Notes: a model not told the origin generated them from the letters alone. Counted from the first letter of the stretch, positions 5,563-30,404 are shown. The stretch is 64,000 nt of DNA from Candidatus Deferrimicrobiaceae bacterium (GCA_963792415.1 CAWBVY010000004.1:96001-160000), one strand, 5' to 3'. Numbers and translations are program-made.

Positions 5563-6985
5563 GCCGACCGGGTTCATGGAGCACGATCGGGAGGAACCGA
5601 TCCACCGGCCGGTGACCGAACGGGTCGGGGACTACCGCGAGATCGAGGAACTGCTCCCCGAGGAGGGGATCTACCGCCAGGCGGTGCGCTGCATGGATTG
5701 CGGGATCCCGTTCTGCCACTCCTACGGCTGCCCCGTGAAGAACCGGATCCCCGACTGGAACGAGATGGTCTACCGGAAGAACTGGCGGAAGGCGCTCGAC
5801 CTGCTGCACGCCACCTGCAACCTTCCGGAGATCACGGGCCGGGTATGTCCCGCCCCGTGCGAGGCCGCGTGCACCCTGGCGATCAACCTCCCCGCGGTCA
5901 CCATCCGCCACCTCGAGCTTCAGATCGTGGAGCACGGCTGGCGGGAGGAGTGGATCCGGCCGGAGCCGGCGGGGTTTTCGACCGGCAAGCGCGTGGCCGT
6001 CGTGGGATCCGGTCCCGCGGGGCTCCCCGCCGCCCAGCAGCTCGCGCGCAACGGCCACGAGGTGGTCGTCTTCGAGAAGGCGGACCGGATCGGGGGGCTT
6101 TTGCGGTACGGCATCCCCGACTTCAAACTCGAGAAGTGGGTCATCGACCGTCGGCTCGACCAGATGCGGGCCGAGGGGGTGGTCTTCGAAACGGGCGTCA
6201 ACGCGGGGGTGGACGTCTCCGCCGCGTACCTGCGCCGATCCTTCGACGCGATCGTCCTGGCCGCCGGGGCGACGTCGGCGCGCGACCTGCCCGTCCCCGG
6301 GAGGGACCTCAAGGGGGTCCACTTCGCGATGGAGTTCCTCACGCAGCAGAACCGGCGGAACGCCGGAGACACGATCCCCGAGGGGGAAGGGATCTCCGCG
6401 ACGGGGAAGCACGTGGTGGTGATCGGCGGGGGGGACACGGGATCGGACTGCATCGGCACCAGCCGCCGGCAGGGGGCCGCCTCGATCACCCAGATCGAGC
6501 TGCTGCCGATGCCTCCGGAGGAACGGCTCCCGACCAACCCGTGGCCCACGTGGCCGGTCGTCCTGCGGACCTCTTCTTCCCAGGAGGAAGGGTGCGAGCG
6601 GATGTGGAGCGTCCAGACGAAGGCGTTCCTCGGCGAAAAGGGAGCGGTCCGGAAGATTTCCTGCGTGGAACTGGATTGGACCGGGCCGGACGCCGCGGGG
6701 AGTCGTTCGTTCAAGGAGATCCCCGGCTCCGCGTTCGAGCTGCGGGCGGACCTCGTGCTCCTGGCGATGGGGTTCGTCCACGTGGAGCACGGCCCGCTGG
6801 TCCGGGACCTGGGCGTTGCGACGGACGGGCGGGGGAACCTGGTTTCCGACGGGAACTGCATGACGAACGTCCCCGGCGTCTTCGGGGCGGGGGACGCCGT
6901 CATCGGCGCCTCTCTCGTGGTGCGAGCGATCGACCTCGGCCGGCTGGCCGCGGCGGGGGCGGACCGGTACCTCGTCGGGCGCTGA
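5555..6985 (+). CDS. gltD: glutamate synthase small subunit
   Basis: [34 protein letters not shown]; overlaps gltB stop. Confidence 0.97.
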
Positions 6986-7063
6986 CCCGCGAAACGATCC
7001 GCTCCTTCCGGGAATCCCTTTTTTGAATTGGCGGACAATCAACCTGTCAAGAAGGAGGAACTT

Positions 7064-12684: not shown

Positions 12685-12891
12685 TTACGAGCGATACTTG
12701 AAGGAGATGTTCACCCGTGCCCGGTAGGCGACGACCTTATTCTTGTCGATCGCCATGTCCAATTTGACGACTTCCGCGACCCTGAGGTCCTCGAGGGACT
12801 TCCCGGCGGTCTCCACCGCGTTTTTCGCGGCTTCCTCCCACGATGTCTTGCTCGTGCCCACGATTTCGATGACTTTGTAAACGCTGTCCAT
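12685..12891 (-). CDS. dodecin family flavin-binding protein
   Basis: VYKVIEIVGTS..SWEEA..NAV, YRARVNISFKY. Confidence 0.9.
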   Translation of the reverse strand: MDSVYKVIEIVGTSKTSWEEAAKNAVETAGKSLEDLRVAEVVKLDMAIDKNKVVAYRARVNISFKYRS

Positions 12892-13072
12892 GGCTCCTCT
12901 CCTTCCCGGGCGGATTTTGCTCTCATCGGATCGATCAACCACGTTTCATGGTACCACTCTCCCTCTGGAGCCGCGCGCGCTTTCGTTCGCCCCCCTGGGG
13001 ATCACCGCGCGGGGAACCGTCGGGAAATCGACCGGTTCCCCCTTCCTGCCGGGAGGGAACTATGTATACTGT

Positions 13073-14697
13073 ATGCAAAATCGGAGATTCCTCGCAGAAA
13101 TGCCTTGGCGAAAAAGCATAGCAATGAAGATCATCCTGAGCGTCGTCGGGATGATCCTGATCGTGAACGGCGCCCTGGCGTACCTTTTTCTCGACATCCA
13201 GGGGGAAAACCTCAACCACGCGATCCACCGGAACGCCTCGCAGCTCAGCGAGACGATCAAGAAATCGATCCAGAACGACATGCTCGAGAACCGGAAGGAA
13301 GCCGCCTACAAGATCATGGAGACGATCGGAGGGCAGGAGGGGATCGAAAAAGTCCGCGTCTACAGCTCCGAGGGGAAGATCCTCTTCTCCAGCGGCAACC
13401 CGGGCGAGGTCGGCCAGATGGTCAACCAGAAGGCGGAAGCCTGCTTCGGGTGCCACGCGGAAGCCCGCCCGCTCGAGCGGCTGGAGACGTCCGGACGGAG
13501 CCGTGTTTTCTTTTCCGAGCACGGCGACGAGGCGGGCGGCACGAACCACCGCGTCCTCGGGATCATCAATCCGATGTACAACGAGGCTGGCTGCTCCTCC
13601 GCGGCGTGCCACGCCCACCCAATGTCGCTGAAGGTCCTGGGGGTGATCGACGTCACCATGGACCTGAGCGAGGTGGATAACCAGATGACCCTGGCGCGGC
13701 GCCAGGTCCTGGTCGTGAGCGTCGTCTCGCTGGTCGCCATCTGCATCATCGTCGCCCTCATCCTCCTCCACTTCATCGAAAAGCCGGTCAAGGAGTTCGT
13801 CCTCGGCACGAAGCGGATCTCCGGGGGGATCTCGACCATTTCATCAACGTCACGACGAACGACGAGATGGGGCACCTGGCGATGTCGTTCAACCAGATGA
13901 CCCTGGATCTTCAGAACGCGCAGAAGGAGATCCAGGAGGGGATCCGGAACCTGGAGCAGAAGGTGGAGGAGCGGACGCAGGAACTCAAGGCGACCCAGTC
14001 GCAGCTGCTGCATTCGGAGAAGCTTGCGGCCGTGGGGGCGCTGGCGGCGACCGTCGCGCACGAGATCAACAACCCGCTGACCGGCGTCTACACCTACATC
14101 CGGCTCATGGAGAGGAAGCTCGACCTGGGACAGCATGGGCCGGAGGATCTCTCGAGATACAAGGGGTTTCTCGACACGATGCGCAGGGAGGTCGAGCGGA
14201 CGACCGCCATCGTGCAGAACCTTCTCGACTTCACGCGGCCGAAGGACCCGCTCCGCAAGCCGATGAGCCTCGTCAAGGTGCTGGAGGAGTCCCTCGCCCT
14301 CGTCTCGAACAAGCTGAGCCTCAGTAACATCGCGGTGGTGAAGGTTCTGAACCCCCTACCGGATATCCAGGCCGACCCGGCGCACATGAAGCAAGTGTTG
14401 CTCAACCTCCTCATCAACGCCTGCGAAGCGATGGAAGAGGGGGGAACCTTGACGATCCGGTCCGATCACCACCCGGATGCGAACACCGTGACGATGAGCT
14501 TTCACGACACGGGGAACGGAATAGAGGAAAAGGACCTGGCGCGGATCTTCGACCCCTTCTTCTCCACGAAGAAGAAGGGGACCGGGCTGGGCCTCTCGGT
14601 CGTCAACGGCATCGTGACCCGCCACGGCGGCAAGGTGGAAATCGACAGCGCCCCCGGGAAGGGAACCGATTTCCGGGTGACCCTGCCCGTCGGGTAA
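13073..14697 (+). CDS. membrane sensor histidine kinase with periplasmic CxxCH/Cx4CH domain; frameshift at G6 run 13823-13828
   Basis: Two TM helices, CFGCH and CSSAACH; adding one G gives HAMP ISGGDLDH..DEMGHL; AHEINNP, N box, FDPFF, GTGLGL. Confidence 0.88.
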
Positions 14698-14712
14698 AGG
14701 AAAGCGGAGAAC

Positions 14713-15267
14713 ATCGGCAACGTCATCTACATCCGGCCTGTCGGGGCTGTGGAACACGGGATCCTCCAATGGCTGAGGAAAGAGATGGGTGACTGCCTCA
14801 TGGCGACCGTACGGACGCTTCCGGCGCTCCCCGTTCCACCCGAAAGCTTCGAGGCCCGCCGGAACCAGTACTATTCGACGAGGATTCTCAAGGAGATGCT
14901 CGGGGAGGTCCCGCAGGACGCGCTCAAGCTCCTGGGGGTGACGGACAAGGACCTGTGCATCCCGATCCTGACGTACGTCTTCGGGGAGGCGCAGGTGGGC
15001 GGGACGGCCGCCGTCGTTTCCCTCGCCCGGCTGCGACAGGAGCATTACGGGCTGACGCCGGACCGGCCGCTGCTCCTGGAGAGACTTCGCAAGGAAAGCC
15101 TCCACGAGCTGGGGCATACGTTCGGCCTCGTTCATTGCCCGTTGAGGGAATGCGTGATGTACCTTTCGAACACCGTGGTGGACGTGGACACCAGGGGGCG
15201 GGATTTCTGCATGGGTTGCCAGACGGTCGTGGCGTCAAAAAACACCGCGGCGGAGAGGCGGGGATGA
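14713..15267 (+). CDS. archaemetzincin-family Zn metalloprotease (first canonical start GTG 14749)
   Basis: RNQY, VFGEA, HELGHTFGLVHC..CVM, FC..C. Confidence 0.88.
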   Translation: MGNVIYIRPVGAVEHGILQWLRKEMGDCLMATVRTLPALPVPPESFEARRNQYYSTRILKEMLGEVPQDALKLLGVTDKDLCIPILTYVFGEAQVGGTAAVVSLARLRQEHYGLTPDRPLLLERLRKESLHELGHTFGLVHCPLRECVMYLSNTVVDVDTRGRDFCMGCQTVVASKNTAAERRG

Positions 15268-16631
15268 CGATGGAGAAGAAGGTCAACATCATGGTGGTGG
15301 ACGACGAGGAAATCGTCCGGGCTTCGCTGACCGGCTGGCTCGAGGAGGACGGGTATCACGTGGAGGCCGTGGAGAGCGGCAGGAAGGCGCTGGAACGCCT
15401 CCCCGAGAGGAGCTGGGACCTGATGCTCGTGGACCTGAAGATGCCCGGGATGGACGGAATCCAGCTGATGGACGAGGTCCACAAGACGGCGCCCGAGATG
15501 CTGGTCATCATCATGACGGCCTACGCGACGGTCGACACCGCCGTGAAGGCGATGAAGAAGGGGGCCTACGACTATTTCGTCAAACCGTTCAACCCCGACG
15601 ACATCTCCCTGACGATCCGGAAGATCGTGGACCATCACAAGCTCGTCCAGGAGAACCTGTTTCTGCGGAAGGAGCTCAAGAAGCAGTACAAGCTGAGGGA
15701 CATGATCAGCAAGAACGAGAAGATGCTGGAGATCTTCGACCTGGCGCGGACCGTGGCGAAGAGCAGCTCGACGGTCCTCATCCAGGGCGAGAGCGGGACG
15801 GGGAAGGAGCTTCTCGCGCGGGCGATCCACGACGAAAGTCCCAGGATGGACGCCCCGTTCATCTCGGTGTCCTGCGCTTCCCTCACGGAATCCCTGCTCG
15901 AGAGCGAGCTCTTCGGGCACGAAAAGGGGGCCTTCACCGGCGCCACCGTCCTGAACCGGGGGAAACTGGAGCTCGCCCAGGACGGGACCCTCTTCCTGGA
16001 CGAGATCGGGGACATCAGCCTGAAGCTGCAGATGGACCTCCTCCGCGTCCTCGAGCAGCGGGAGTTCCGGCGGGTCGGGGGGTCGGAACTGATCCCCATC
16101 AACTCGCGGATCATCGCCGCCACGAACCGGGACCTTTCGGCCGCGATCGCGGAGGAACGGTTCCGCGCCGATCTCTACTATCGCCTGAACGTCATCTCCA
16201 TCCACATCCCGCCGCTGCGGGAGAGGAGGGAGGATATCCCGCTCCTGATCGACCACTTCATCGAGAAATTCAACATCGAGATGGGGAAGGAGATCCGCGG
16301 GATCAGCGAAGGGGCCGTGAGAATCCTGATGGGCAACGATTGGCCGGGGAACGCGCGGGAACTTCGGAACGTCATCGAGAGGGCGGTGGTCGTCGCCAAG
16401 GGGAACATCGTCACCGAGTCCGACATCACCCTTCCGTCCACCGCTTCCGGCGCGAATCACCGGACGAAATCGCTCGAGGAGATCGAGAAGGCGCATATCC
16501 AGGTGGTCCTGAACGAGCACCAGTGGAACATCGTGCGATCCGCCCAGGCGCTCGGGATCGACCGGGTCACCCTCTACAACAAGATCAAGAAATTCGGCTT
16601 GAAGAAGGAAGGGGCGGCACCGAAGGGGTGA
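15264..16631 (+). CDS. sigma-54-dependent NtrC-family response regulator
   Basis: REC (VDDE, DLKMPGMDG), GESGTGKE, ELFGHEKGAFTGA, FRADLYYRLNV, Fis HTH. Confidence 0.95.
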   Translation: MTMEKKVNIMVVDDEEIVRASLTGWLEEDGYHVEAVESGRKALERLPERSWDLMLVDLKMPGMDGIQLMDEVHKTAPEMLVIIMTAYATVDTAVKAMKKGAYDYFVKPFNPDDISLTIRKIVDHHKLVQENLFLRKELKKQYKLRDMISKNEKMLEIFDLARTVAKSSSTVLIQGESGTGKELLARAIHDESPRMDAPFISVSCASLTESLLESELFGHEKGAFTGATVLNRGKLELAQDGTLFLDEIGDISLKLQMDLLRVLEQREFRRVGGSELIPINSRIIAATNRDLSAAIAEERFRADLYYRLNVISIHIPPLRERREDIPLLIDHFIEKFNIEMGKEIRGISEGAVRILMGNDWPGNARELRNVIERAVVVAKGNIVTESDITLPSTASGANHRTKSLEEIEKAHIQVVLNEHQWNIVRSAQALGIDRVTLYNKIKKFGLKKEGAAPKG

Positions 16632-16675
16632 GGAAAAACCCGATAGGCTGTTGAAATCCGCAACACGATAATCCG
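16604..16675 (+). repeat. 72-bp imperfect direct repeat, copy 1
   Basis: 62/72 identical by manual alignment to 21235-21306. Confidence 0.9.
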
Positions 16676-16695
16676 CAGCTGAAGGCCAAGGGACG

Positions 16696-18039
16696 TCATG
16701 CTCCGAGCAAGCGGTCGGGAAGCCACATCACGATGTCCGGGAACATCGCGAGCAGCATGATATAGATCGCCATGATGGCGATGAACGGCAATACCCCCCA
16801 CATGATTTCCCGGAACTTGATGTCCGGCGCGATTCCGTTGATGACGAACAGGTTCAGGCCGACGGGAGGGGTGATCAGCCCCATTTCCATATTGATCGTC
16901 ATCACGATGCCGAACCAGATCGGGTCGAACCCGTGAGCGAGAATTCCCGGCATGACCACCGGCGTCACCATCAGGATGATCGCCACCGGCGGCAGGAAAC
17001 ATCCCAGCACCAGCAGCAAAACGTTCACCCAGAAGAGGTAGGCCCACTTCGACATATGCAATCCGACAAGCCACTCCGTCGCGCTTTGGGAGATGTGAAG
17101 GTAGCTCATCACATAGGTGAAGAGGAAGGCCATGGCGATGATCATCATGATCATGCACGATTCCCGGGCGGTGCCCGCAAGAATCCCCTTGATGTCCTTC
17201 CACCGGTAGGTCCGGTACACGATCGCGACGAGCGCCATCGCCCCGAATGCGCCGACCGCCGCCACTTCCGACGGGGTCGCAAAGCCGCCGTACAGGGCCA
17301 CCATCACGACCAGGACCAGGATCAAAAACGGGAGCAGCCGCGGGAGGGTTTGCAGCCGCTCCCGCCACGTGAAGTTCTCTTCCCTGAGCATCTCTTTCGC
17401 CAGCTCGCCGCCCTGCCCCGCCTGCGCGCGCCGTTTTTCCCGCAGGAACGCGAGCACGACCCAGGCAGCGAACCAGGACGCGAGAAGGAATCCGGGGATG
17501 ACCCCCGCAAGAAACAGCTTCCCGATCGACTGCTCGACGATGATGCCGTAAATGATCAGGGTGATGCTGGGCGGAATGAGGATCCCGAGTGTCCCCCCGG
17601 CCGCGATCAGGCCGGATGCCAGTGCCGGCGAATACCCGCGCCTGCGCATCTCGGGAATGCCCATGCCGCCGATCGCCGCACAGGTGGCCGGACTGGAGCC
17701 GCACATGGCGGCGAAGATGGAACAGCCCGCCACGTTGGCGACGCCCAGGCCGCCCGGCAGCCGGTAAAACCAGCGGTGCATCGACTCGTACAGGTCGACG
17801 GCCGCGCGCGTCTTCCCGACCGCGGAACCCATGAAGATGAACAGGGGAATCGCCAGGAGCGTGAAGTTGTTCAGTTCGCCGTAAATCGTTTCGGCAATGA
17901 TCTGGATGTTGCTGGCGGGAAGGAAGAGAAACATGAACGTGACGGCGACTCCCCCGAGGGCAAACGCGATCGGAATGCCGCTGAGAAGCAGCAGCAGCGC
18001 GGAACCGATATAGAGAACTCCTATGGAAAAAACGTCCAT
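16696..18039 (-). CDS. dctM: TRAP transporter large permease
   Basis: LLAIPLFI, GSSPA, GILIPPSI, TPSE, GLITPPVGLNLF. Confidence 0.93.
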   Translation of the reverse strand: MDVFSIGVLYIGSALLLLLSGIPIAFALGGVAVTFMFLFLPASNIQIIAETIYGELNNFTLLAIPLFIFMGSAVGKTRAAVDLYESMHRWFYRLPGGLGVANVAGCSIFAAMCGSSPATCAAIGGMGIPEMRRRGYSPALASGLIAAGGTLGILIPPSITLIIYGIIVEQSIGKLFLAGVIPGFLLASWFAAWVVLAFLREKRRAQAGQGGELAKEMLREENFTWRERLQTLPRLLPFLILVLVVMVALYGGFATPSEVAAVGAFGAMALVAIVYRTYRWKDIKGILAGTARESCMIMMIIAMAFLFTYVMSYLHISQSATEWLVGLHMSKWAYLFWVNVLLLVLGCFLPPVAIILMVTPVVMPGILAHGFDPIWFGIVMTINMEMGLITPPVGLNLFVINGIAPDIKFREIMWGVLPFIAIMAIYIMLLAMFPDIVMWLPDRLLGA

Positions 18040-18040
18040 G

Positions 18041-18550
18041 CTACGCCTTTCGAACGGGAGGAGCGAGCAGGTCGTCAATGATCTGAACGACAAGCTGAAG
18101 GGTCAGCGTGGTCATCCCCAGCGACATGAAGAAGTAGGGGATCCAGAGCCTGGGCGCCCAAATGGAGTCGGTCACCCACCCTCCCTCCCAGGCCTCGAAG
18201 AAATAGCGCCACATGTAGAAGGAAATAAACGCGCAGAACCCGGCCGACAGGATGTCGGCGAGCAGGTGCCGCCACCAGTTCCACCGGGGCGACAGAAGGC
18301 TTTCCAGCACCTCGATCCCGACATGGGCGCGCCATTCCTGCGTAAACGCGGCGGCCATGAAGGTCGAGGCGATCAGCAAAAAGATGTTCAGCTCGAGGTG
18401 CCAGTCATGGGGCGCCCGGAAGAAATAGCGCGCCACGACCTCGAACGAGATCGCGACCGTGGATAAAACGATCAGAAGCGCACTCCCATAGCCCATGACG
18501 AGGTTGACCCGCCGCATCACGAGCTGGAATGGCCCCCAGGCTCGCCGCAT
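18041..18550 (-). CDS. dctQ: TRAP transporter small permease
   Basis: Four TM helices, VVARYFF, HVGIE; between dctP and dctM. Confidence 0.9.
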   Translation of the reverse strand: MRRAWGPFQLVMRRVNLVMGYGSALLIVLSTVAISFEVVARYFFRAPHDWHLELNIFLLIASTFMAAAFTQEWRAHVGIEVLESLLSPRWNWWRHLLADILSAGFCAFISFYMWRYFFEAWEGGWVTDSIWAPRLWIPYFFMSLGMTTLTLQLVVQIIDDLLAPPVRKA

Positions 18551-18566
18551 GTCGGTACCGCCGGAG

Positions 18567-19595
18567 CTACTTCACCGATACTGCCATGTCGATCAGGCGC
18601 TTCCCGTCCTTGACCTTATCGGCGAAATCCTTCCATGCGCTTTCCGCGGCAATCTTGCGCCACTTCGCGAACATCGCCTCGTCCATGTCGTGAACGGCAA
18701 CACCGGCCTTGGTGTACACGTCGGCCACCCGCTGGTCATCCTCCTTGGCGGATTTCACCGCGAACGCATCCAGGGAAGCGCCCACCTCCGTGACGATCTT
18801 CTGCTGTTCCGGGGTGAGACTGTCGTAGGTGGACTTCGCCATCAGGAGCGGCTCGAACATGTACCAGAAGGTCTTGTTCCGGGCCGTGGTCACGTGCTTT
18901 CCCACCTCGTAGAGCCGGTAGCTCACAAGAGAACCGCTGGAAGTCCAGAGTCCGTCGGCCACCCCGGAATGCAGGGCGCTGTAGGCTTCGTCCGACGGGA
19001 AGCTGACGATCGCGCCACCGGCCGCCTTGAGCATGATCTCGATCGACTTCCCGGCGCCTCGCAACTTCAGGCCTTTTATATCTTCCGGATTGAGAATCGG
19101 TTTGTCCCGGGAGACGTTGCCCCCCGCCTGCCATACCCACGTGATGATCTTGACGCCGTTCTCCTCCACGGCCTTCGTTAGCTCCTGCCCGATGGGAGCC
19201 GTCTTCCACCGCAACCCCTGCTCGTAGCTCGTGATGAGCGCCGGCATGAGCGTGATATTGGCGATCGGCAGTTTCCCGCCCTGGTACGCCAGCGGGAAAA
19301 CGGACATGTCGAGCGCACCCTTCGACATGGCATCGAATTGCAGTCTCGATTTCACCAGCGATCCGGCAGGGTAGATCTCGAACTTCAACGCGCCATTCGT
19401 GCGTTTCTCCACTTCCTGCGCGAACTTCCGCGCCAGGCGATCCCGGAAGTCCCCCTCATCCGCGGTGCCGCCGGGGAACTGATGGGAGATCTTGATGACG
19501 CGTGCATCCTGCGCGTGGGCCGGAGGCGAAGACGGGAAGAGGAACATCCCGGCCAGGATCAAAGGTAGTGCAAACCTCGTTATGCAAGTTTTCAT
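18567..19595 (-). CDS. dctP: TRAP substrate-binding protein
   Basis: Signal peptide, ISHQFP, EDIKGLKLR, Y.AL.SGVADG. Confidence 0.92.
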   Translation of the reverse strand: MKTCITRFALPLILAGMFLFPSSPPAHAQDARVIKISHQFPGGTADEGDFRDRLARKFAQEVEKRTNGALKFEIYPAGSLVKSRLQFDAMSKGALDMSVFPLAYQGGKLPIANITLMPALITSYEQGLRWKTAPIGQELTKAVEENGVKIITWVWQAGGNVSRDKPILNPEDIKGLKLRGAGKSIEIMLKAAGGAIVSFPSDEAYSALHSGVADGLWTSSGSLVSYRLYEVGKHVTTARNKTFWYMFEPLLMAKSTYDSLTPEQQKIVTEVGASLDAFAVKSAKEDDQRVADVYTKAGVAVHDMDEAMFAKWRKIAAESAWKDFADKVKDGKRLIDMAVSVK

Positions 19596-19869
19596 TTCAT
19601 CCCCTCCTTTTGTGGTGCTGGCCTGGCCAGCAGAACCTCAATTCATGCGGGTCAATCCATATTATTGTTCCCCCGCTGAAATGGGAGTAGCGCGAGGATT
19701 TCCGTTACCCCGTTCCGCCGCAGCAAAACGCCGTCTCTGAAAAGGTAATTCGGATTATCCCACAGAAGACGGCTTCTTTCCATCTTCCCGGTGAGAAATC
19801 CGTGCCATGCCGGCACGCGGCATCAAGGACCAGACCCCAACAGAAGGGTTTTCCCCCTATAATGGTGAC

Positions 19870-21216
19870 ATGGGATCGTTGGGCCTGCTTCATACGTTCT
19901 CGAAAACCGTCGGCAGCCTCCGGGACCGCTTCCTTCCGCCCAAGCCAGGGAGGCAGGACATTCTGCGGCTTGCGGAGGCGCTCCTCTCCGGACAGGGGGA
20001 GGCATCCGACGTGGCAGTGGCCAGGAACTTTCTGGCGGCATATGACGCCCTGACGGAAGAAAAAAAACTTTTCTTCCTTACGCTTCTCGATCAGCAATTC
20101 GGCCCGGATCAGGTGCGCCTGGAACGGGCCCTCACGAAGTTCCAGGGGCAGCCGACAGCCCAGGCCGCGCAGGAAATGCGCGAAGCGGCCGAGTCGCGGC
20201 GCGAGGTGCTCTTTCGGCGGATCAACCTTTCTCCCGGCGGAACGAGGGGGCTCCTGCAGATGCGTGAGGATGTCTTGCGCAACCTGCCCGCCGTCCCGGA
20301 GCTGGCCTCCGTTGACGCGGATTTCAAACACCTCTTCTCGTCATGGTTCAACCGCGGATTCCTGGTCCTGCGGCGGATCGACTGGACCACGCCGGCCAAC
20401 ATCCTGGAAAAGATCATCCGATACGAGGCGGTTCATGAGATTGCCAGCTGGGACGATCTTCGCAGGCGGCTGGAACCGACGGACCGGCGCTGTTTCGCCT
20501 TCTTCCATCCAACGATGCAGGACGAACCGCTGATCTTTCTCCAGGTTGCCTTGACATCGGAGGTTCCCGTGGCGATCGTCCCCTTGCTGGCCGACGAAAG
20601 AAATCCGATCCCCCCCGGCAAGGCGACATTCGCCGTTTTCTATTCCATCTCCAACTGCCAGGTGGGGCTGAAGGGGATCCCCCTGGGCGACTTTCTCATC
20701 AAGCAGGTGGTGGAGGACCTGAAACGGGAGTTCCCGTCCCTGAAGACCTTCATCACCCTGTCGCCGGTCCCCGGATTCCTGCGCTGGCTGGCGCAGGAAC
20801 GGGGCAAGGAGGCCTCGCAGTATGTCACGGGCGAGGACAAGGACGTGCTCGCCCTGCTCGACACGCCGGACTGGCACATGGAAGCGAACGCGGCCAACCT
20901 GCTGAAACCCAGGCTTCTATCCGCCGTCGCCGCCTACCTGCTGGCGGTCAAGACGGAATCAGGAAAGCCGATCGACCCGGTTGCGCGCTTTCATCTGGGC
21001 AACGGCGCACGCCTGGAGAGAATTCATTGGCTCAGCGATCTGACCCCCAAAGGGTTAACACAAGCCGCCGGGTTCATGGTCAATTACCTCTACGAGCCTG
21101 ACCGGATCGAACGGAACCAGGACTCCTTCGCCCTGCATGGCGAAATCGTCTCTTCCCACGCCGTGCGGAAATACCTGCGCTCCGATATCCAGAAACGTAT
21201 CCCCTCCCCTTCCTGA
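19870..21216 (+). CDS. malonyl-CoA decarboxylase (MatA-like)
   Basis: SWFNRGFL, YEAVHEI, FYSISNCQ.GL.G, TLSPVPGF, DPVARFHLGNGA, MVNYLY. Confidence 0.93.
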   Translation: MGSLGLLHTFSKTVGSLRDRFLPPKPGRQDILRLAEALLSGQGEASDVAVARNFLAAYDALTEEKKLFFLTLLDQQFGPDQVRLERALTKFQGQPTAQAAQEMREAAESRREVLFRRINLSPGGTRGLLQMREDVLRNLPAVPELASVDADFKHLFSSWFNRGFLVLRRIDWTTPANILEKIIRYEAVHEIASWDDLRRRLEPTDRRCFAFFHPTMQDEPLIFLQVALTSEVPVAIVPLLADERNPIPPGKATFAVFYSISNCQVGLKGIPLGDFLIKQVVEDLKREFPSLKTFITLSPVPGFLRWLAQERGKEASQYVTGEDKDVLALLDTPDWHMEANAANLLKPRLLSAVAAYLLAVKTESGKPIDPVARFHLGNGARLERIHWLSDLTPKGLTQAAGFMVNYLYEPDRIERNQDSFALHGEIVSSHAVRKYLRSDIQKRIPSPS

Positions 21217-21234
21217 AACGGCACCCGATGGCCT

Positions 21235-21306
21235 GAAGGAAGGGGCGGCGCCGAAGGGGTGATGATTAACTCAACAGGCTGCTGAATTCCGCAACACAAT
21301 AATCCG
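21235..21306 (+). repeat. 72-bp imperfect direct repeat, copy 2
   Basis: GAAGGAAGGGGCGGC.CCGAAGGGGTGA...TCCGCAACAC.ATAATCCG. Confidence 0.9.
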
Positions 21307-21360
21307 TAACAAATTCAACATGTAATCTTTCCCCGCCGGGAAGTGTAAAGAATATCAACA
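21280..21360. promoter_or_regulatory. candidate upstream activator sites for the sigma-54 activator
   Basis: TGCTG-N7-CAACA (21280-21296), TGTAA-N7-CAACA (21344-21360), extra CAACA 21316-21320; 100-180 bp upstream of the -24/-12 site. Confidence 0.5.
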
Positions 21361-21460
21361 ATTTCCGGTTTTCCGTCCCTTCCGCCTCCCCGCACACCTC
21401 AGGCCAATTACTCTTTTATTAACAGATGGATATACGGCGCATGCCGATCTGGACCGGAGC

Positions 21461-21475
21461 TGGCACAACCATTGC
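21461..21475 (+). promoter_or_regulatory. sigma-54 -24/-12 promoter
   Basis: TGGCAC-AACCA-TTGC matches consensus; AT-rich tract upstream. Confidence 0.88.
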
Positions 21476-21523
21476 GGTAGTGAGGTGCGCGGGAGGTCGT
21501 CCCCGCGGAAGGAGGTGGGAACG

Positions 21524-21604
21524 ATGGGGTACCTGGTGATCGGAATCGCGTACATCGTTCTGGCGGTCGTCGCGGTGGTGAAACCGCGGGCGGACCACGC
21601 ATGA
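21524..21604 (+). CDS. 26-aa single-pass membrane peptide MGYLVIGIAYIVLAVVAVVKPRADHA
   Basis: AAGGAGGTGG RBS, ATG..TGA, first ORF after the sigma-54 promoter. Confidence 0.6.
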   Translation: MGYLVIGIAYIVLAVVAVVKPRADHA

Positions 21605-21662
21605 AACGTTCCCGGGAGTCGAGCGGGTGAACCGGACCACCGAAAGGAAAAGGGGTGCGCAG

Positions 21663-22373
21663 ATGAAAGAGACGAGATGCCCTTTTCTGGAGACGAAAAC
21701 CGTGACGTTCTGCAAGGCGTTCCCGTCGAAGATGATCCCGGTGGACCGGCTGTACACCTCGGAGAGCCTCTGCACCACCTGCCACTTCGAGGAATGCTCC
21801 CTGTACAACGAGGTGGCCGGCGCCGGCAAGGGGATGGAGAATGTCCGGGGATTTCACCTAAAGTCGGGGTACTACTACCACCCCAAGCACCTGTGGGTCG
21901 CCCCGCACGACGGGGAAGAGGGCGAGGCCCGGGTGGGGATCGACGACTTTTCCGCCCGGCTGGTCGGCAGGGTCGACCGTGCGTCGGTGCCCGCGGTCGG
22001 CGTGGCGGTGAAGGAGAACCACGTCTGCTTCCTCCTCCACTCCGGTCCTCGGACCGCCCACCTGGTTTCGCCCGCCAACGGGGTCGTCAAGGCGGTGAAC
22101 CCGAAGGTGGCCGCGGATCCCTCCCTGCTCAACGACGATCCGTACGGCGAAGGGTGGATCTTCTCCCTGCAGCTCAAAGGGGACGCGGTGAAGGGGCTGT
22201 ACCACGAGACGGTCGCCCGGAAGTGGTACGAGAGCGAGGTCGAACGGCTGCAGCGGGTCTTCTCTTCCGACCTGGGGATGACGGCGACGGACGGCGGGGA
22301 GGCGCTCACGGACATCAGCGGCCGGTTGAACGACGCGCAATGGGGAAAGATCGTCAGCCAATTTCTGGGGTAA
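21663..22373 (+). CDS. GcvH-fold protein with N-terminal Cys-rich domain, no lipoyl Lys
   Basis: CPF..C..CTTCH..C, then YYHPKHLWV, VGIDDF, SPANG.V..VN, DPYGEGW. Confidence 0.85.
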   Translation: MKETRCPFLETKTVTFCKAFPSKMIPVDRLYTSESLCTTCHFEECSLYNEVAGAGKGMENVRGFHLKSGYYYHPKHLWVAPHDGEEGEARVGIDDFSARLVGRVDRASVPAVGVAVKENHVCFLLHSGPRTAHLVSPANGVVKAVNPKVAADPSLLNDDPYGEGWIFSLQLKGDAVKGLYHETVARKWYESEVERLQRVFSSDLGMTATDGGEALTDISGRLNDAQWGKIVSQFLG

Positions 22374-22389
22374 GAGCAGGAGGTGGGCC

Positions 22390-23064
22390 ATGGTAGTCCT
22401 TCTCGTCGTACTCACGGTTCTCGGATGTATCGCGGTGGACCTGGCCCTCAAGCGGAGGGAGAAGGCGGCGGCGGAAGCCCTTGCCGTCCGTGAGCCGGCC
22501 GCGCTGCTCCCTTCCCTGACGGCGCAGGAACTGCCCGGCGGCCTGTTCGTCCACAGCGGCCACACCTGGGCGAGGCTCGATGCCTCGGGCGCGGTGCAGG
22601 TGGGGCTGGACGGCTTCGCGCAGGGGATCCTGGGGAAGGTCGACCGGTTCGAGCTTCCCCCGGACGGGGCGACGCTGCGCCAGGGGGAGCCGGCGTTCGC
22701 CGCCCTCCAGTCGGGGAAACGGATCGAGTTCGTCTCCCCCGTCGACGGCGTCGTCTGCGCGGTGAACGAGGGGATCAACGCCGACCCGGCGGAGGCGCGG
22801 AAGGAGCCGTACGGGAAGGGGTGGGCGTTCCTGCTCCGGCCGTCCAACCTCTCCCGGGACCTGAAGAAGCTCCGGATCGGCGCGGAGGCCGCGGCGTGGC
22901 TGGAAAGGGAGGCGAAGAGCTTCACCGAGTTCCTCTCCCTGCACCGGGCGGTGCCCGTGGAAGTGGGGGCCACCCTGCAGGATGGAGGGATTCACGTCGA
23001 GGGAATCATGGAGAGCATGGACGGAGAGATTCTCCAGATCGCGATCCGGAAGTATTTCCGCTGA
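22390..23064 (+). CDS. membrane-anchored GcvH-fold protein
   Basis: N-terminal TM; HSGHTWA, VGLDGF, SPVDG, PYGKGW. Confidence 0.85.
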   Translation: MVVLLVVLTVLGCIAVDLALKRREKAAAEALAVREPAALLPSLTAQELPGGLFVHSGHTWARLDASGAVQVGLDGFAQGILGKVDRFELPPDGATLRQGEPAFAALQSGKRIEFVSPVDGVVCAVNEGINADPAEARKEPYGKGWAFLLRPSNLSRDLKKLRIGAEAAAWLEREAKSFTEFLSLHRAVPVEVGATLQDGGIHVEGIMESMDGEILQIAIRKYFR

Positions 23065-23091
23065 CGCCTCACACCACGGGAGGAAAGAGAG

Positions 23092-24009
23092 ATGACCATC
23101 AGCAGACGGAACTTCCTGAAGGCCGCGGGTGCGGCCGGCGGCGCCCTTCTCGGGGGGGGCGCCGCGTCGGCCCGCGCCGCGCAGGTCCCGCAGACCTCGG
23201 CGGGAGGCGTCGAGTTCGACGGGATGCTCATCGACACGACGAAGTGCATCGGCTGCCGCGCCTGCGAGGAGGCGTGCAACGAGGCGAACCATCTCCCCAA
23301 GCCGAGGGTCTCCTTCTCCACCGAGAGCGTGTTCGAGGAGACGCGGGACACGACCACCGGCGCCTTCACGGTCGTGAACCGGTTCCCAAACGAGAAGAAG
23401 CCGCAGGAGCCGATCTTCGTCCGGAAGGAGTGCATGCACTGCAACCAGCCGGCGTGCGCCTCCGCGTGCCTGTGCCGGGCGATGGAGAAGACCAGGGAAG
23501 CCGCGGTCATCTACCACAAGGACCGGTGCATGGGGTGCCGCTACTGCATGATCGCCTGCCCCTTCGACATCCCGAAGTTCGAGTACGACAGCCCCACGCC
23601 TTTCGTGTGGAAGTGCATCTTCTGCAACGAGCGGCAGATGCGGGGGGAGCCGCCCGCCTGCTCCGAGGTGTGCCCCACCGGCGCGACCCTCTTCGGGAAG
23701 AAGCGCGACCTGCTGGAGATCGCCCGGAGCCGGATCTACACGGAGCCGGACAAGTACGTCCACAGGATCTACGGGGAGCACGAGGTCGGCGGGACCGGAT
23801 GGCTCTTCCTGACGGGCGCTCCGCCGGAGAAGCTGGGCCTGCGGACCAACCTGGGGACGACCCCCTACCCCGAGCTCACCTCCGGGTTCCTGTACGGAGT
23901 GCCCCTGGTGTTCGTGCTCTGGCCGTCGCTCCTCATCGGGCTGAACTACCTCATCAAGGATACCAAGGTCGACGAAACGAAGGAGGCCTCCCATGGCGAA
24001 CAGGACTGA
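23092..24009 (+). CDS. Tat-exported 4x[4Fe-4S] protein, HybA/NrfC/HmcB-like
   Basis: SRRNFLK; CIGCRAC..C, CMHC..PAC..C, CMGCRYC..CPF, CIFC..C..CP; C-terminal TM. Confidence 0.9.
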   Translation: MTISRRNFLKAAGAAGGALLGGGAASARAAQVPQTSAGGVEFDGMLIDTTKCIGCRACEEACNEANHLPKPRVSFSTESVFEETRDTTTGAFTVVNRFPNEKKPQEPIFVRKECMHCNQPACASACLCRAMEKTREAAVIYHKDRCMGCRYCMIACPFDIPKFEYDSPTPFVWKCIFCNERQMRGEPPACSEVCPTGATLFGKKRDLLEIARSRIYTEPDKYVHRIYGEHEVGGTGWLFLTGAPPEKLGLRTNLGTTPYPELTSGFLYGVPLVFVLWPSLLIGLNYLIKDTKVDETKEASHGEQD

Positions 24010-25288
24010 CGCGGCGCCCGCGAGCGCCGAAGGCACCATGACCTTCCGGGAGGTGGCTCGGGAAACGATCCGGTTCGTCCTGAGCGAATTCAAACCGAAA
24101 GGGAAGATGCTGACGCCGTTCAACGTCATCACCGGGGGGATCATCCTCTCCGGCCTCGTGATGATCGCCATCCGGTTCGCCTACGGCCTGGGCGCCGTCT
24201 CCAACCTCTCCCAGAACTACCCGTGGGGGATCTGGATCGGCTTCGACGTGGTCACCGGCGTGGCCTTCGCCGGAGGCGCCTACGTCCTGACCTTCGTCGT
24301 CCACATCCTGAAGGTGAAGAAGTACGAGCCGATCGTCCGCGTGACCGTCCTCAACGGATTCCTCGCCTACGTCTTCTACGCCGGCGCGCTCCTGCTCGAC
24401 CTGGGGCGCCCCTGGAACGTCATCAACCCCATCATCGGGAACTCCTTCGGGTTGAGCTCCGTCCTCTTCCTGGTCGCCTGGCACTTCCTCCTCTACATGA
24501 TCTGCGAGTTCCTGGAGTTCTCCCCGGTCGTCGCGCAGTGGCTGAACTGGCCGAGGGCGCGCAGGATCCTGGAAGGGCTCACCACCGGCGCCGTCATCTT
24601 CGGGATCACCCTCTCGACGCTCCACCAGTCGGGCCTGGGGGCGCTCTTCCTCCTGGCCCCCTCGAAGATCCACCCGTTGTGGTACTCGGGGAACATCCCG
24701 GTGATGTTCTTCGTCTCCAGCGTCTTCGCGGGCCTTTCCATGGTCATGATCGAGAGCTTCTTCACGCAGAAGGCCTTCAAGGACCGGATCGGGCACGAGC
24801 TCCACGCGGCCCACGACAGCATCCTCCTCGGGCTGGGGAAGGGAGCCGTCGGCGCCCTCTTCGCCTACATCTTCCTCAAGCTCGTCGACTTCGTGCACTA
24901 CAAGCAGTGGGTCTACCTCGACACCCCGATGGGGTACTGGTACCTGTTCGAGATCGTCGGGTTCGTCCTCCTGCCGACCGCCCTCTTCCTCCAGGCGATC
25001 CGGCAGCGCAACCCGAAGCTCGTCCAGTTCACCGCGTTCCTCACGGCGATCGGGGTGATCCTGAACCGGCTCAACGTCTCCGTCATCGCGTTCAAGTGGT
25101 ACGAGGCCGTCCGGTACTACCCCTCCTTCATGGAGATCTGGGTGACGCTGGCGATCATCAGCATGGAACTCTGGGTCTTCCGGTGGGTGATCAACCGGAT
25201 GCCCGTGTTCGGAGAGGCGCATGAGGTGGTGGAGGAAAAAACCGCGGAAGACCTGGAGGTGGTCACATGGAAGGCACCAGCTTTATAG
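23993..25288 (+). CDS. NrfD/HybB/HmcC-like polytopic membrane subunit
   Basis: YPWGIWIGFDV, DLGRPW, LSTLHQSGLG, HPLWY, NRLN, YYPS. Confidence 0.9.
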   Translation: MANRTDAAPASAEGTMTFREVARETIRFVLSEFKPKGKMLTPFNVITGGIILSGLVMIAIRFAYGLGAVSNLSQNYPWGIWIGFDVVTGVAFAGGAYVLTFVVHILKVKKYEPIVRVTVLNGFLAYVFYAGALLLDLGRPWNVINPIIGNSFGLSSVLFLVAWHFLLYMICEFLEFSPVVAQWLNWPRARRILEGLTTGAVIFGITLSTLHQSGLGALFLLAPSKIHPLWYSGNIPVMFFVSSVFAGLSMVMIESFFTQKAFKDRIGHELHAAHDSILLGLGKGAVGALFAYIFLKLVDFVHYKQWVYLDTPMGYWYLFEIVGFVLLPTALFLQAIRQRNPKLVQFTAFLTAIGVILNRLNVSVIAFKWYEAVRYYPSFMEIWVTLAIISMELWVFRWVINRMPVFGEAHEVVEEKTAEDLEVVTWKAPAL

Positions 25289-25959
25289 ACATCTACGCCA
25301 CGAAGGGGATCGAGTACCTGATCGTCATCTCGTTCCTCGCGGCCTTCGTGCTCTTCTGCCGCTACATGTACCAGCCGCGCGAGGGGCAGGCGCGCGCGAG
25401 GATCGCCCCGGAGAGCGAGACCCGGTTCCGGATCCCCGAGGGGCTCTTCTACCACCAGGGGCACGGCTGGCTCCGGCCGGAGCCGGGCTCCATCGGCGTC
25501 GTCGGGCTGGACGACTTCGCCCGGAAGCTCGTCGGGAAGGTGGACGCCGTCGAGCTGCCCGCCGTGGGGTCCCGGCTGGCGCAGGGGGAGAAGGGGTGGA
25601 GCCTCGTGGTCGATTCCGACCGGATCCCGATGCTGTCGCCTGTGGCCGGCGAGGTGGTCGAGGTGAACGACGAGGTTCTCCGGTCCCCCGAGGTCCTGCG
25701 CCAGGACCCGTACGGCAAGGGGTGGCTGCTGAAGGTGAAATCTTCCAGGGTGGCGTCGAACACCCGGAACCTTCTCTCGGGAAAGCTGGCCAGGGCCTGG
25801 ATGGAAAACGCGCTCGACAATCTCCACCCGCTCCACGGCGAAACCATCGGCCCGGTCCTCCAGGACGGCGGTCTCCCCGTGGAGGGGATCGCGCGGATAC
25901 TGGGCGGCCCCGAATGGGTGGAGCTGGCGAAGACGCACCTGCTGACGGACGGGGAGTAA
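25267..25959 (+). CDS. membrane-anchored GcvH-fold protein, no lipoyl Lys
   Basis: DIYATKGIEYL + TM; YHQGHGW, VGLDDF, SPVAGEV..VN, DPYGKGW. Confidence 0.85.
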   Translation: MEGTSFIDIYATKGIEYLIVISFLAAFVLFCRYMYQPREGQARARIAPESETRFRIPEGLFYHQGHGWLRPEPGSIGVVGLDDFARKLVGKVDAVELPAVGSRLAQGEKGWSLVVDSDRIPMLSPVAGEVVEVNDEVLRSPEVLRQDPYGKGWLLKVKSSRVASNTRNLLSGKLARAWMENALDNLHPLHGETIGPVLQDGGLPVEGIARILGGPEWVELAKTHLLTDGE

Positions 25960-25968
25960 CGCGGACCC

Positions 25969-26007
25969 GGGGGACGCCCGCCGCGCATTGCGCGGCGGGC
26001 GTCCCCC
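25969..26007 (+). terminator. strong GC hairpin closing the sigma-54 operon
   Basis: GGGGGACGCCCGCCGCGC-ATT-GCGCGGCGGGCGTCCCCC; weak U tract. Confidence 0.6.
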
Positions 26008-26204
26008 GCTTTCCAAATCCGCCCTCCCGCCCTCCTGCCCGCGTCACGGATCACGCAGACCGCATGCCGGAGCATCGAACGTCCGCGCGAGGACGGGGAC
26101 CCCGCTCCGCTTTGACAGCCCGGCCACGGGCCGCTACTTTATGAAAGGAGGCGCATCCCGCCTGGTATCGCCTCTGATGACCGCAGACCACGCCGGAGGG
26201 GGAA

Positions 26205-27470
26205 ATGGCCTGGTGGCTTCTCCTGGCGGTCGGGTGGACCGTCGCCGCCGTCTGGGCGGGTTCCGCGGTCCTCACGATCCGCTTTCTCCGCGGGAACAGG
26301 CTCGCGGAAAGGGCCGGGGCGACGGCGGATCCGGCGGTTTGGCCCAAGGTCTCGGTGGTGGTTCCCGCGCGGGACGAGGCGGACCGGATCGAAGAGGCCC
26401 TGGGGTCGCTGGCGAACCTCGACTATCCGGCTTTCGAGGTGATCGCCGTGGACGACCGGTCGACGGACGGAACGGGTGCCATCATCGACCGCGTGGCGTC
26501 CGGGGATCCCCGGGTGCGGGCCCTGCACGTAGCCGAACTGCCCGAGGGGTGGCTGGGAAAGTGCCACGCGATGCAGGCGGGGGCGCGGCTGGCCGGAGGG
26601 GAGCTGCTCCTCTTCACCGACGGCGACGTCGTCTTCGCCCCGGACACCCTCCGTCTCGCGGTCCGCTTCCTCCTCGCGCGGAAACTCGACCATCTGGCCC
26701 TCCTGCCCGGCCTCGTCCGCGGCGGATACTGGGAGGACGCCGCGAAGAGCTACTTCGCGATGCTCTTCATCGTGGGGGTCAGGGCCTGGGCGGCCGGTTC
26801 GGCGTCGAAGGGCGCCTACGTCGGCATCGGGGCCTTCAACCTGCTCCGGCGGGCGGCGTACGAGGCGATCGGCGGTCACGAGGCCCTCCGCCTGGAAGTC
26901 ACCGACGACCTGATGCTCGGGAAGAGGGTCAAGCAGGCCGGGTTCCGGCAGGACGCCCTCACCGCCTCCGACCACCTGCGTCTCCGCTGGCAGAAGGGCG
27001 TCGGGGGATTCGTCCGGGGGCTCGAGAAGAACGGATTCGCCGCGCTCGGGTTTTCGCTCCCCTTTCTCCTCCTCGTCACGGCCCTCGTTTTCCTCTTTTA
27101 CGCGGTCCCCTACCTCGGGGTTCTCTCCCTCCGTGACGCCCGCGTCTCCGGGTACGCCCTTTCCGTACTCCTGATGCACGGGCTCTTCGGGTACTGCGCA
27201 TCGTTCGAGCGGAACGGGTGGCTCCTCGCCCCTGCACTCCCGGTCGCCGCCTTCCTCTACCTCTTCGCCATCTGGCGCTCGGCGGTCGTCACCCTCCGCC
27301 GCGGAGGCGTCCGGTGGAGGGAGACCTTCTACCCTCTCGAGCTCCTGAAGCGCGGACGGGGGCCGCTGAACCACTTCATGTACGCGTATACGGAAGCGGA
27401 AGGGAAACCGCTCAGCGAGGACCTGTACGGGTATAACCCGGGCTGCAAAATCACGTTCCGGGAATTTTGA
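26205..27470 (+). CDS. membrane GT2 glycosyltransferase (HpnB-like)
   Basis: VPARDE, DDRSTDGT, GWLGK, FTDGD, GGHE..TDD, WR..FY. Confidence 0.85.
   Translation: MAWWLLLAVGWTVAAVWAGSAVLTIRFLRGNRLAERAGATADPAVWPKVSVVVPARDEADRIEEALGSLANLDYPAFEVIAVDDRSTDGTGAIIDRVASGDPRVRALHVAELPEGWLGKCHAMQAGARLAGGELLLFTDGDVVFAPDTLRLAVRFLLARKLDHLALLPGLVRGGYWEDAAKSYFAMLFIVGVRAWAAGSASKGAYVGIGAFNLLRRAAYEAIGGHEALRLEVTDDLMLGKRVKQAGFRQDALTASDHLRLRWQKGVGGFVRGLEKNGFAALGFSLPFLLLVTALVFLFYAVPYLGVLSLRDARVSGYALSVLLMHGLFGYCASFERNGWLLAPALPVAAFLYLFAIWRSAVVTLRRGGVRWRETFYPLELLKRGRGPLNHFMYAYTEAEGKPLSEDLYGYNPGCKITFREF

Positions 27471-27649: not shown

Positions 27650-30404
<2,755 letters not shown>

Follow-up and report, generated by a model that had tools for sequence, protein, structure and literature searches.

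A widespread gene module combining GcvH-like proteins that lack the lipoyl lysine with an iron-sulfur/NrfD-type pair, found in Candidatus Deferrimicrobiaceae and other bacteria

What role can three proteins with the fold of the glycine cleavage H protein (GcvH) have when each of them lacks the lipoyl lysine and all three are encoded around a membrane redox pair? The question is raised by an operon of a Candidatus Deferrimicrobiaceae bacterium (genome GCA_963792415.1; 11 contigs, rated 100% complete), located on the + strand at positions 21461-26007 of the 64,000-nucleotide (nt) stretch of DNA analysed here (contig C4, 96001-160000; hereafter the window, within which positions are counted unless a contig is named). 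All of the genes and families that the original prediction had described were recovered: a micropeptide, two GcvH-like proteins (H1 and H2), an iron-sulfur (FeS) protein with a twin-arginine translocation (Tat) signal, an NrfD-family membrane subunit and a third GcvH-like protein (H3), whose genes overlap or are separated by gaps of at most 28 nt. The module represented by this operon is real and widespread, and it is best read as one of the "periplasmic FeS protein plus NrfD subunit" kind, like the Hmc, Nhc and Hyb B/C pairs, with an undescribed accessory set added. More specifically, we see an even chance that it is an electron-transfer module of the Hmc/Nhc type, linked to quinone and controlled by sigma-54 in response to the redox state, in which GcvH-fold subunits free of lipoate are located at the cytoplasmic face.

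Conservation of the gene neighbourhood was assessed by a scan with H3 of one genome per species, which gave 336 relatives of H3; 79 loci were kept for comparison. According to their record titles, these loci come from Deferrimicrobium/Deferrimicrobiaceae, Anaeromyxobacter and other Myxococcota, Acidobacteriota (Solibacter, Bryobacteraceae), Gemmatimonadota, Bacteroidota/Ignavibacteria, Calditrichaceae, Desulfarculales, Desulfobulbaceae and others. Among the 29 well-flanked loci (at least 3 kb on both sides), which represent at least six phyla, 28 contain both an FeS and an NrfD gene beside the gene for a membrane-anchored GcvH-like protein. In the full set, an FeS and/or NrfD gene adjoins the H gene in 69 of the 79 loci; in nine of the remaining ten the contig ends next to the gene, and a single one (L061) is truly stand-alone, with neighbours (a cyclase, transferases and a nuclease) that offered no lead. 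The number of H genes per well-flanked locus differs (one in 10 loci, two in 7 and three in 12), and the gene order is variable. Since the FeS/NrfD association is retained in 28/29 loci while the number and order of H genes vary, the minimal unit consists of the H3-type, FeS and NrfD proteins. All-against-all clustering of the open reading frames (ORFs) of these loci was used with restrictions: the three largest clusters, which had merged via out-of-frame ORFs of GC-rich DNA, were left unused, and clusters 4 and 5 were dropped, as they look like antisense frames of a regulator gene.

The H3-type protein is the universal member of the family. It matches 158 of 1.84 billion cluster representatives at E <= 1e-30, and 2154 representatives at E <= 1e-10, a number that includes ordinary GcvH. 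In a phylum sample of 201 genomes, 70 match H3 at E <= 1e-20 (GcvH-level matches included), and the four further genomes of this bacterium's family all have an H3 match. One 1391-amino acid (aa) cluster representative matches H3 in three separate stretches.

All three proteins have the H-protein fold, as had been proposed. H1 (21663-22373, alternative start at 21627), H2 (22390-23064) and H3 (25267-25959), all encoded on the + strand, match PF01597 (GCV_H) with 71.7, 67.6 and 75.4 bits, respectively (cut-off 22.2), and their scores against the NCBIfam GcvH model (TIGR00527/NF002270) are 58.7, 58.9 and 78.7, all short of the equivalog cut-off of 115.85. The AF2 (AlphaFold2) model of H3 has a predicted local distance difference test (pLDDT) value of 83.7, and its best Foldseek match is Thermus GcvH (1onl_A; TM-score 0.91 over the target, 35% identity). 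A further Foldseek match of H3, to RnfC (8rbm_C), was not significant (E 0.16, probability 0.35) and was rejected; the H fold may resemble the barrel-sandwich domains of Rnf/Nqr subunits.

For the lipoyl position, the proteins were aligned with the Lys-bearing GcvH of the same genome (C4:657984-658343; lipoyl motif ESQKTVVELSSP). At the place of its K, which stands at the hairpin tip 8 residues ahead of the conserved Pro, H1 has P, H2 has G and H3 has S, and only H2 has a nearby Lys, one place past the canonical position, exactly as the original prediction had stated. The loss extends to the relatives: K occupies the canonical column in only 4 of 157 GcvH-like ORFs from the 79 loci (some truncated at contig ends, 3 gapped at the column). 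In some groups the next position is often Lys, but it is not conserved as such family-wide. The fold has thus been kept and the cofactor site has not, since H3 superposes on solved H proteins while the lipoyl lysine is lost.

Genome-wide searches, which covered all of the assembly but 72 kb of contig C6 (hereafter the searched genome), gave eight PF01597 matches, namely one with Lys, one with Thr, three in the window and three on C6. The Thr-bearing match is a small GcvH-like gene at C10:53453-53806. GcvT (PF01571), with which a true GcvH works alongside the P protein, had no match in the searched genome, though a Lys-bearing GcvH is present; gcvP was not included in the search.

H1, H2 and H3 share a C-terminal extension of about 60 aa. 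It was said to end in DGG; the extension is indeed common to all three, but the DGG sits 24-32 residues before the C-terminus, in what the models show as a low-confidence loop between two helices. DGG occurs within the last 75 residues of 140 of the 154 proteins with a complete 3' end. The cysteine-rich N-terminus predicted for H1 was likewise recovered in part: four Cys (C6, C17, C37 and C45) are invariant, as are D210, G211 and G212, and not all six Cys of this copy are conserved. A second group of loci has the Cys domain twice; the domain was matched by none of the Pfam and NCBIfam models, and a protein search with it gave no usable match. When six distant GcvH-like proteins were compared with Pfam and NCBIfam at loose thresholds, GcvH models alone were found, and the Cys domains and the DGG extension were left uncovered. 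In H3-type proteins, a near-invariant ATKGxEY begins a single transmembrane helix, which is followed by a disordered linker.

Could these proteins still be carriers, their group being lipoate at the shifted Lys of H2, a Cys persulfide or a Gly-Gly freed by cleavage at DGG? The tether through a disordered linker resembles swinging lipoyl domains, the DGG loop is kept as described above, a protease is co-conserved (see below), and two H1-type proteins (L049 and L050) have K at the canonical place. However, the family as a whole has no conserved Lys or Cys at the hairpin tip or next to it, the tail past DGG is conserved as well and is modelled as a confident helix, the only PF03099 gene of the genome is distant from the module, and no conserved E1-like, ligase or sulfur-transfer gene was noticed among the commonest neighbour clusters, in which no search aimed at such genes was made. 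We regard a carrier function as highly unlikely.

In Gemmatimonadota, H3-type proteins (L072, 9983-11236; also L063, L066, L069 and protein P0176) have two tandem GcvH domains behind one transmembrane helix and no DGG, and an 8-haem cytochrome is encoded downstream of them. In five Gemmatimonadota loci, the loss of DGG coincides with an absence of the M54 peptidase and the kinase described below, but since these loci are related to each other and three of them are cut upstream, no weight was given to a link between the two.

On which side of the membrane do the H domains lie? A transmembrane-like segment was found in 95 of 108 H2/H3-type proteins, and the K/R balance around it mostly points the same way: more K/R follow the helix in 85 proteins, equal numbers flank it in 7 and fewer follow it in 3. 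H2, for example, has no K/R before the helix and five after it. According to the positive-inside rule (85/95), the H domains of H2/H3-type proteins are predicted to be cytoplasmic, in agreement with the earlier placement of these proteins on the cytoplasmic face.

The two remaining products of the operon form the redox pair. The first, encoded at 23092-24009 (+ strand), is an HmcB/HybA-like, Tat-exported and tail-anchored 4x[4Fe-4S] protein (HmcB model 352.9, HybA model 233.7), with a Tat signal (TIGR01409, 25.2; cut-off 16.7), a Fer4_11 match (62.5; cut-off 26.2) and, in its translation, 16 Cys in four cluster motifs. The second, encoded at 23993-25288 (+ strand), is an HmcC/HybB-like membrane subunit of the NrfD family (PF03916, 47.8; cut-off 25.8), which scores 388.1 with HmcC (cut-off 550) and 239.9 with HybB (cut-off 450) and shows 65% mean column identity over 26 loci. 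The Pfam score, the four Cys motifs and the twin-arginine signal together identify an NrfD-family protein with a Tat-exported 4Fe-4S partner. Lists of quinone-site residues of NrfD-like subunits are found in PMC8076601. The NrfD gene overlaps both of its neighbours, and its overlap with the H3 gene amounts to 22 nt. A complex prediction for the NrfD subunit with H3 (26-row alignment each) returned a score of 0.01 and a mark of 0.32, which, with no controls run, is evidence neither way.

In the Bryobacteraceae/Solibacter loci (L073-L088), the start of the FeS protein lies about 40 residues further in and a twin-arginine signal is missing, yet the C-terminal anchor is kept; either the FeS protein is exported there together with a partner protein or the module faces the cytoplasm.

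The overlap and the topology bear on a different explanation, according to which the GcvH-like proteins would not be stable subunits but would help, in the cytoplasm, to assemble or proofread the exported FeS protein and the NrfD subunit, be it in Fe-S loading, in the quality control of Tat export or in insertion into the membrane. Chaperones of the NarJ/DmsD/HybE type are frequent in operons for Tat-exported redox proteins, all three H proteins are predicted to be cytoplasmic, and the four-Cys domain of H1 could hold a cluster. Against it, two or three paralogues are each retained across phyla, and two of them have a conserved transmembrane helix of their own, with ATKGxEY at the membrane edge; the 22-nt overlap is what one would expect of stoichiometric partners, and the Pfam and NCBIfam comparisons revealed no resemblance to known chaperone families. 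We consider this explanation unlikely, while giving it appreciable weight.

With which enzyme, then, would the pair exchange electrons? The original prediction held that there is no catalytic subunit, which is true of the window and of most loci. PF00384, PF00374, PF03099 and PF01571 have no match within the window, nor has it any ORF with two or more CxxCH motifs; gcvP and the L protein, also reported as absent, were not covered by this search. The molybdoenzymes of this genome are located outside the window, and the [NiFe] hydrogenase large subunit (PF00374) has no match in the searched genome. The claim does not extend to all relatives, since multihaem cytochromes adjoin the module (within 4 kb) in 8 of the 29 well-flanked loci. 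In one group, a 4-haem protein is encoded directly after NrfD and a 13-haem protein upstream, and in Gemmatimonadota an 8-haem protein follows H3. Being found in 8/29 loci, cytochromes are frequent but not obligatory neighbours, and homologous loci do not always include a catalytic or cytochrome subunit. As cytochromes do adjoin the module in these loci, it probably works with periplasmic cytochromes that are encoded elsewhere. A further example is L082 (Solibacteraceae), in which the H3-type gene is directly preceded by a gene (4779-7046) whose product fuses a multihaem cytochrome c with 11 CxxCH to a domain of the cytochrome b561 type.

How is the operon controlled? The unit proved to be larger than in the original prediction, in which dedicated regulators and a protease encoded upstream had been overlooked. 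In the locus closest to the module of the window (L010), genes for a kinase, a small protein and an NtrC-type regulator are found directly upstream of the operon, and their orthologues occur in the window at 13100-16631. The first (13100-14697, + strand) encodes a sensor histidine kinase (HisKA 52 bits, HATPase_c 97 bits) with two transmembrane helices, a HAMP domain and one CxxCH (CFGCH) in its periplasmic domain, 75-86% identical to the kinase of L010. Homologues of its sensor domain occur in 44 of the 79 loci, and 46 of the 47 matches have one CxxCH; a sequence search of the PDB with this domain gave nothing significant (best match E 0.22).

The second gene (14749-15267, + strand; the start may be at 14749, 14785 or 14800) encodes an archaemetzincin-type zinc peptidase of the M54 family (PF07998, 89.4 bits; cut-off 24.4), with the motif HELGHTFGLVHC and a Cys motif, which together make up the HExxHxxGxxH plus Cys signature, and with a match to PDB 2x7m_A (E 1.7e-26). 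HExGHxxGxxHC is kept in 42 of 44 M54 matches of the related loci. The third gene (15264-16631, + strand) encodes an NtrC-type response regulator (Sigma54_activat 230.7, Response_reg 110.3 and Fis-type HTH_8 49.9 bits) that is 92% identical to its L010 counterpart. The genome has more than 20 sigma-54 activator-like matches, yet there is no Sigma54_DBD or Sigma54_CBD match in its searched part.

These regulatory genes accompany the module in other genomes as well. Of the 29 well-flanked loci, 28 have a sigma-54 AAA+ gene at a distance of at most 6 kb, 25 have M54 and, as read from a hit table, 26 have the kinase sensor domain. The hit tables also list 39 genomes (this one included) with an M54 match at most about 7 kb from an H3 match on the same contig, often directly adjacent to it; M54 is present in 76 of the 201 genomes of the phylum sample. 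We know of no physiological substrate or gene context established for the archaemetzincin family. Because the archaemetzincin co-occurs so steadily and the DGG loop is invariant and exposed, a protease-substrate or partner relationship suggests itself, in which the archaemetzincin would dock on, or cut at, the DGG loop of the H proteins and so couple the state of the FeS/NrfD pair to the kinase/sigma-54 circuit; we rate this extension as improbable.

The same company of genes could also be taken to mean that the whole set is a sensing device, with the FeS/NrfD pair reading the redox state of the quinone pool or the periplasm and the H proteins signalling to the archaemetzincin, the kinase and the regulator. 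The nearly constant co-occurrence with kinase, M54 and sigma-54 activator, the frequent position of the M54 gene directly beside a GcvH-like gene in the hit tables and the 21 of 29 loci with no catalytic or cytochrome gene would fit such a device. An operon behind a sigma-54 promoter is, however, the usual layout of a regulated target, multihaem cytochromes within the same operons in several phyla fit electron flow, and a four-cluster FeS protein would be costly as a sensor, so that this proposal appears distinctly unlikely to us.

The promoter itself was found where it had been predicted. A sigma-54 type -24/-12 element (TGGCAC-N5-TTGC; TGGCACAACCATTGCG) at 21461-21476 on the + strand is the sole match in the window, a count that is not significant by itself, with 0.83 matches expected at up to one mismatch. 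In 974 kb of related loci, with the module oriented to the + strand, the strict pattern has 21 matches on the + and 2 on the - strand, and 14 of them lie at most 400 nt upstream of a module gene (starts as called in this analysis). The element is credible because its position is conserved across related loci, the count alone being insufficient. No sigma-70-like site was found by a promoter scan of 21000-26300. With a TGGCAC/TTGC (GG-N10-GC) element and the gene of an enhancer-binding protein nearby, the operon has the features of sigma-54 dependence.

The predicted micropeptide is also present. It is hydrophobic, 26 aa long and has a single transmembrane helix (21524-21604, + strand), and the ATG at 21524, behind GGAGG, is most likely its true start. 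Of the 13 loci that share the gene order H1-H2-FeS-NrfD-H3, 12 keep it, as against none of the 10 loci of the other order. The closing hairpin was borne out as a structure, a perfect 19-bp GC-rich stem after the last gene (25969-26007, + strand; -54.2 kcal/mol, z -6.7), and not as a terminator, for it has no T-run and the terminator scan made no call there. Contigs of three RNA libraries map onto the operon, some without any difference, and such libraries can contain DNA. In run X16 the operon is covered and the upstream stretch 19058-21292 is not, a pattern that was not counted as expression because a stretch without cover proves nothing.

Taken together, the electron-transfer reading to which we give an even chance would work as follows. 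A haem c-type kinase would sense the periplasmic redox state and, with the NtrC-type regulator, turn the operon on via its sigma-54 promoter. The FeS/NrfD pair would then pass electrons between the quinone pool and periplasmic carriers, probably c-type cytochromes with genes elsewhere in this genome and adjacent ones in some phyla. H2 and H3 would be held at the membrane by their N-terminal helix, from which a flexible linker would lead to the H-fold domain on the cytoplasmic side, whereas H1 would be soluble, and its four Cys may hold a metal centre. All three would serve as lipoate-free, non-catalytic adaptors or regulators at the cytoplasmic face of the NrfD subunit, and the co-conserved archaemetzincin may have them as partners or substrates. 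The lipoate-independent adaptor of the original prediction has been supported in part, by its fold, the loss of the lysine, the linkage to FeS/NrfD and the cytoplasmic placement; its binding to the complex and its role are putative.

Several observations weigh against this reading. The HmcB, HmcC, HybA and HybB scores of the pair are all below the curated cut-offs (420, 550, 263 and 450, respectively). The window encodes no periplasmic partner, and 21 of the 29 well-flanked loci have no cytochrome within 4 kb. The rpoN gene (PF04552 and PF04963) had no match in the searched genome, although PF04552 is present in five of five close relatives. The kinase gene of this assembly is split into two frames (12890-13900 and 13867-14697), since one G fewer than in L010 is present in a G-run (13822-13830); contigs of runs X15, X17 and X1 have an extra G behind 13822 and no frameshift. 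Either the assembly is in error here or the gene is a pseudogene specific to the strain. The AF2 model of H1 has a pLDDT of 77.1 overall and of less than 50 in the Cys domain, because of which a metal site there is not established. Physical binding of H1-H3 to the FeS/NrfD pair is putative. NrfD subunits are devoid of cofactors and the operon lacks a haem-b subunit; as no electron route to the cytoplasmic face is seen either, the H proteins are not proposed as redox carriers, and their role is conjectural.

Two further features, a second copy and local REARRANGEMENTS, had both escaped the original prediction. The first is the copy on contig C6 (C6:283039-288055, corresponding to L009, 7039-12055), with 99.9%, 99.3% and 94.6% nucleotide identity to the window in a rearranged order: one strand carries the micropeptide, H1, H2 and H3 genes in direct succession, and the FeS and NrfD genes are divergent, 440 bp upstream. 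The H2-H3 junction of this copy retains 71 bp of the 3' end of the NrfD gene. The copy has its own -24/-12 match (TGGCATGGCTGATGCT), of different sequence and at the same distance from the micropeptide gene; no kinase, M54 or regulator gene adjoins the copy, and inverted Sel1-repeat genes lie on either side. In two RNA-library runs, contigs connect 23066/23067 with 25196/25246, as in the H2-H3 arrangement of C6, and because they carry this joint the arrangement is not private to the present assembly.

The second is an insertion of 4.6 kb (16664-21301) that, by comparison with L010, separates the regulator gene from the operon. It contains dctPQM-like genes of a tripartite ATP-independent periplasmic (TRAP) transporter on the - strand and a malonyl-CoA decarboxylase gene (PF05292, 339 bits), and is flanked by a 72-bp direct repeat with 86% identity (16604-16675 and 21235-21306). 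The insertion-free form is seen in one DNA-run contig, in which 16664 is joined to 21301.

An 11-contig assembly with a near-identical second copy and a frameshifted kinase gene might raise the suspicion that the neighbourhood is a product of chance or of the assembly and that the three GcvH copies are decayed and functionless. Yet the same association recurs in 28 of 29 independent loci, 158 cluster representatives match H3 at E <= 1e-30, all frames are open, and both arrangements recur in contigs of other runs; we give this view hardly any credence.

Downstream of the operon, a 757-aa ORF on the - strand (27650-29923) encodes a KatG-like catalase-peroxidase. A KatG-like gene is also found downstream of the module in L010 (PF00141, 242 bits), with 92% nucleotide identity to C4:123558-125860.

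What would such a module mean? FeS/NrfD modules link the quinone pool to many anaerobic respirations, and their partners at the cytoplasmic face are rarely known. Here, an H-fold family without lipoate is tied to FeS/NrfD in six or more phyla commonly found in sediments and soils. If the H proteins are true subunits, the GcvH fold would here be used independently of lipoate within a membrane complex, a use of which the literature search returned no description. The company of kinase, sigma-54 activator and archaemetzincin represents a testable regulatory circuit, and the module offers a candidate partner for M54, a protease family of open function. Should the archaemetzincin act on the DGG loop, the module would be a redox-controlled membrane device of a new kind and the first physiological context for M54. 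Public sources call these proteins "glycine cleavage system H protein", a label that misleads metabolic reconstructions. In the literature search, which drew on partial texts, no paper was found that ties GcvH-like proteins to NrfD, HybA or Hmc modules, sigma-54 or membrane anchoring; nor, within the same limits, was one found that ties archaemetzincin to GcvH-like proteins or NrfD/Hmc modules. Each part comes from a known family, and the combination, with its lipoate-free, membrane-tethered H fold, appears to be undescribed.

How the module relates to known systems can be seen part by part. In Hmc, a multihaem HmcA is accompanied by the cytoplasm-facing HmcE/F. The best-scoring NCBIfam models of the pair are HmcB/HmcC (NF045715/NF045714), which, like NhcB/NhcC of Desulfovibrio, combine a Tat-exported 4x[4Fe-4S] protein with an NrfD-type subunit, and a multihaem cytochrome adjoins the pair in some phyla, as HmcA or NhcA does. 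Unlike these systems, the window encodes no cytochrome and the operon has no HmcE-like haem-b gene and no HmcF-like, HdrD-like gene, GcvH-fold proteins being present instead, and the scores are below the equivalog cut-offs (352.9 vs. 420 and 388.1 vs. 550). The second-best models, HybA/HybB (NF008134/NF008133) of Escherichia coli hydrogenase 2, share the two-protein architecture and the tail-anchored FeS protein; here too the scores fall below the cut-offs (233.7 vs. 263 and 239.9 vs. 450), and the searched genome gave no match for a [NiFe] hydrogenase large subunit.

Modules of FeS, NrfD and multihaem proteins in Ca. Deferrimicrobium borealis and Melioribacter roseus have been described as quinol-oxidising (PMC9386147). 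As far as the available text of that paper goes, they resemble the present module in lineage and in being an anchor module of the complex iron-sulfur molybdoenzyme (CISM) type without a molybdoenzyme, and differ from it in that GcvH-like genes are not mentioned, "glycine cleavage" appearing once in another context.

With GcvH, H1-H3 share the H fold and the PF01597 signature motifs, and they differ in having no lipoyl lysine, in their NCBIfam scores (58-79 vs. 115.85) and in the added transmembrane helix or Cys domain and DGG extension of about 60 aa. LbpA, a lipoate-binding protein of sHdr according to the text available of PMC6067878, differs from them by its lipoylated lysine, and no sHdr genes occur in the operon (hdr families were not searched genome-wide). 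Finally, the peptidase resembles the archaemetzincins (M54; PDB 2x7m and 3zvs) in sequence and in its HExxHxxGxxH/Cys signature, and it is set apart from them by its tie to a kinase, a sigma-54 regulator and a GcvH-like/NrfD module.

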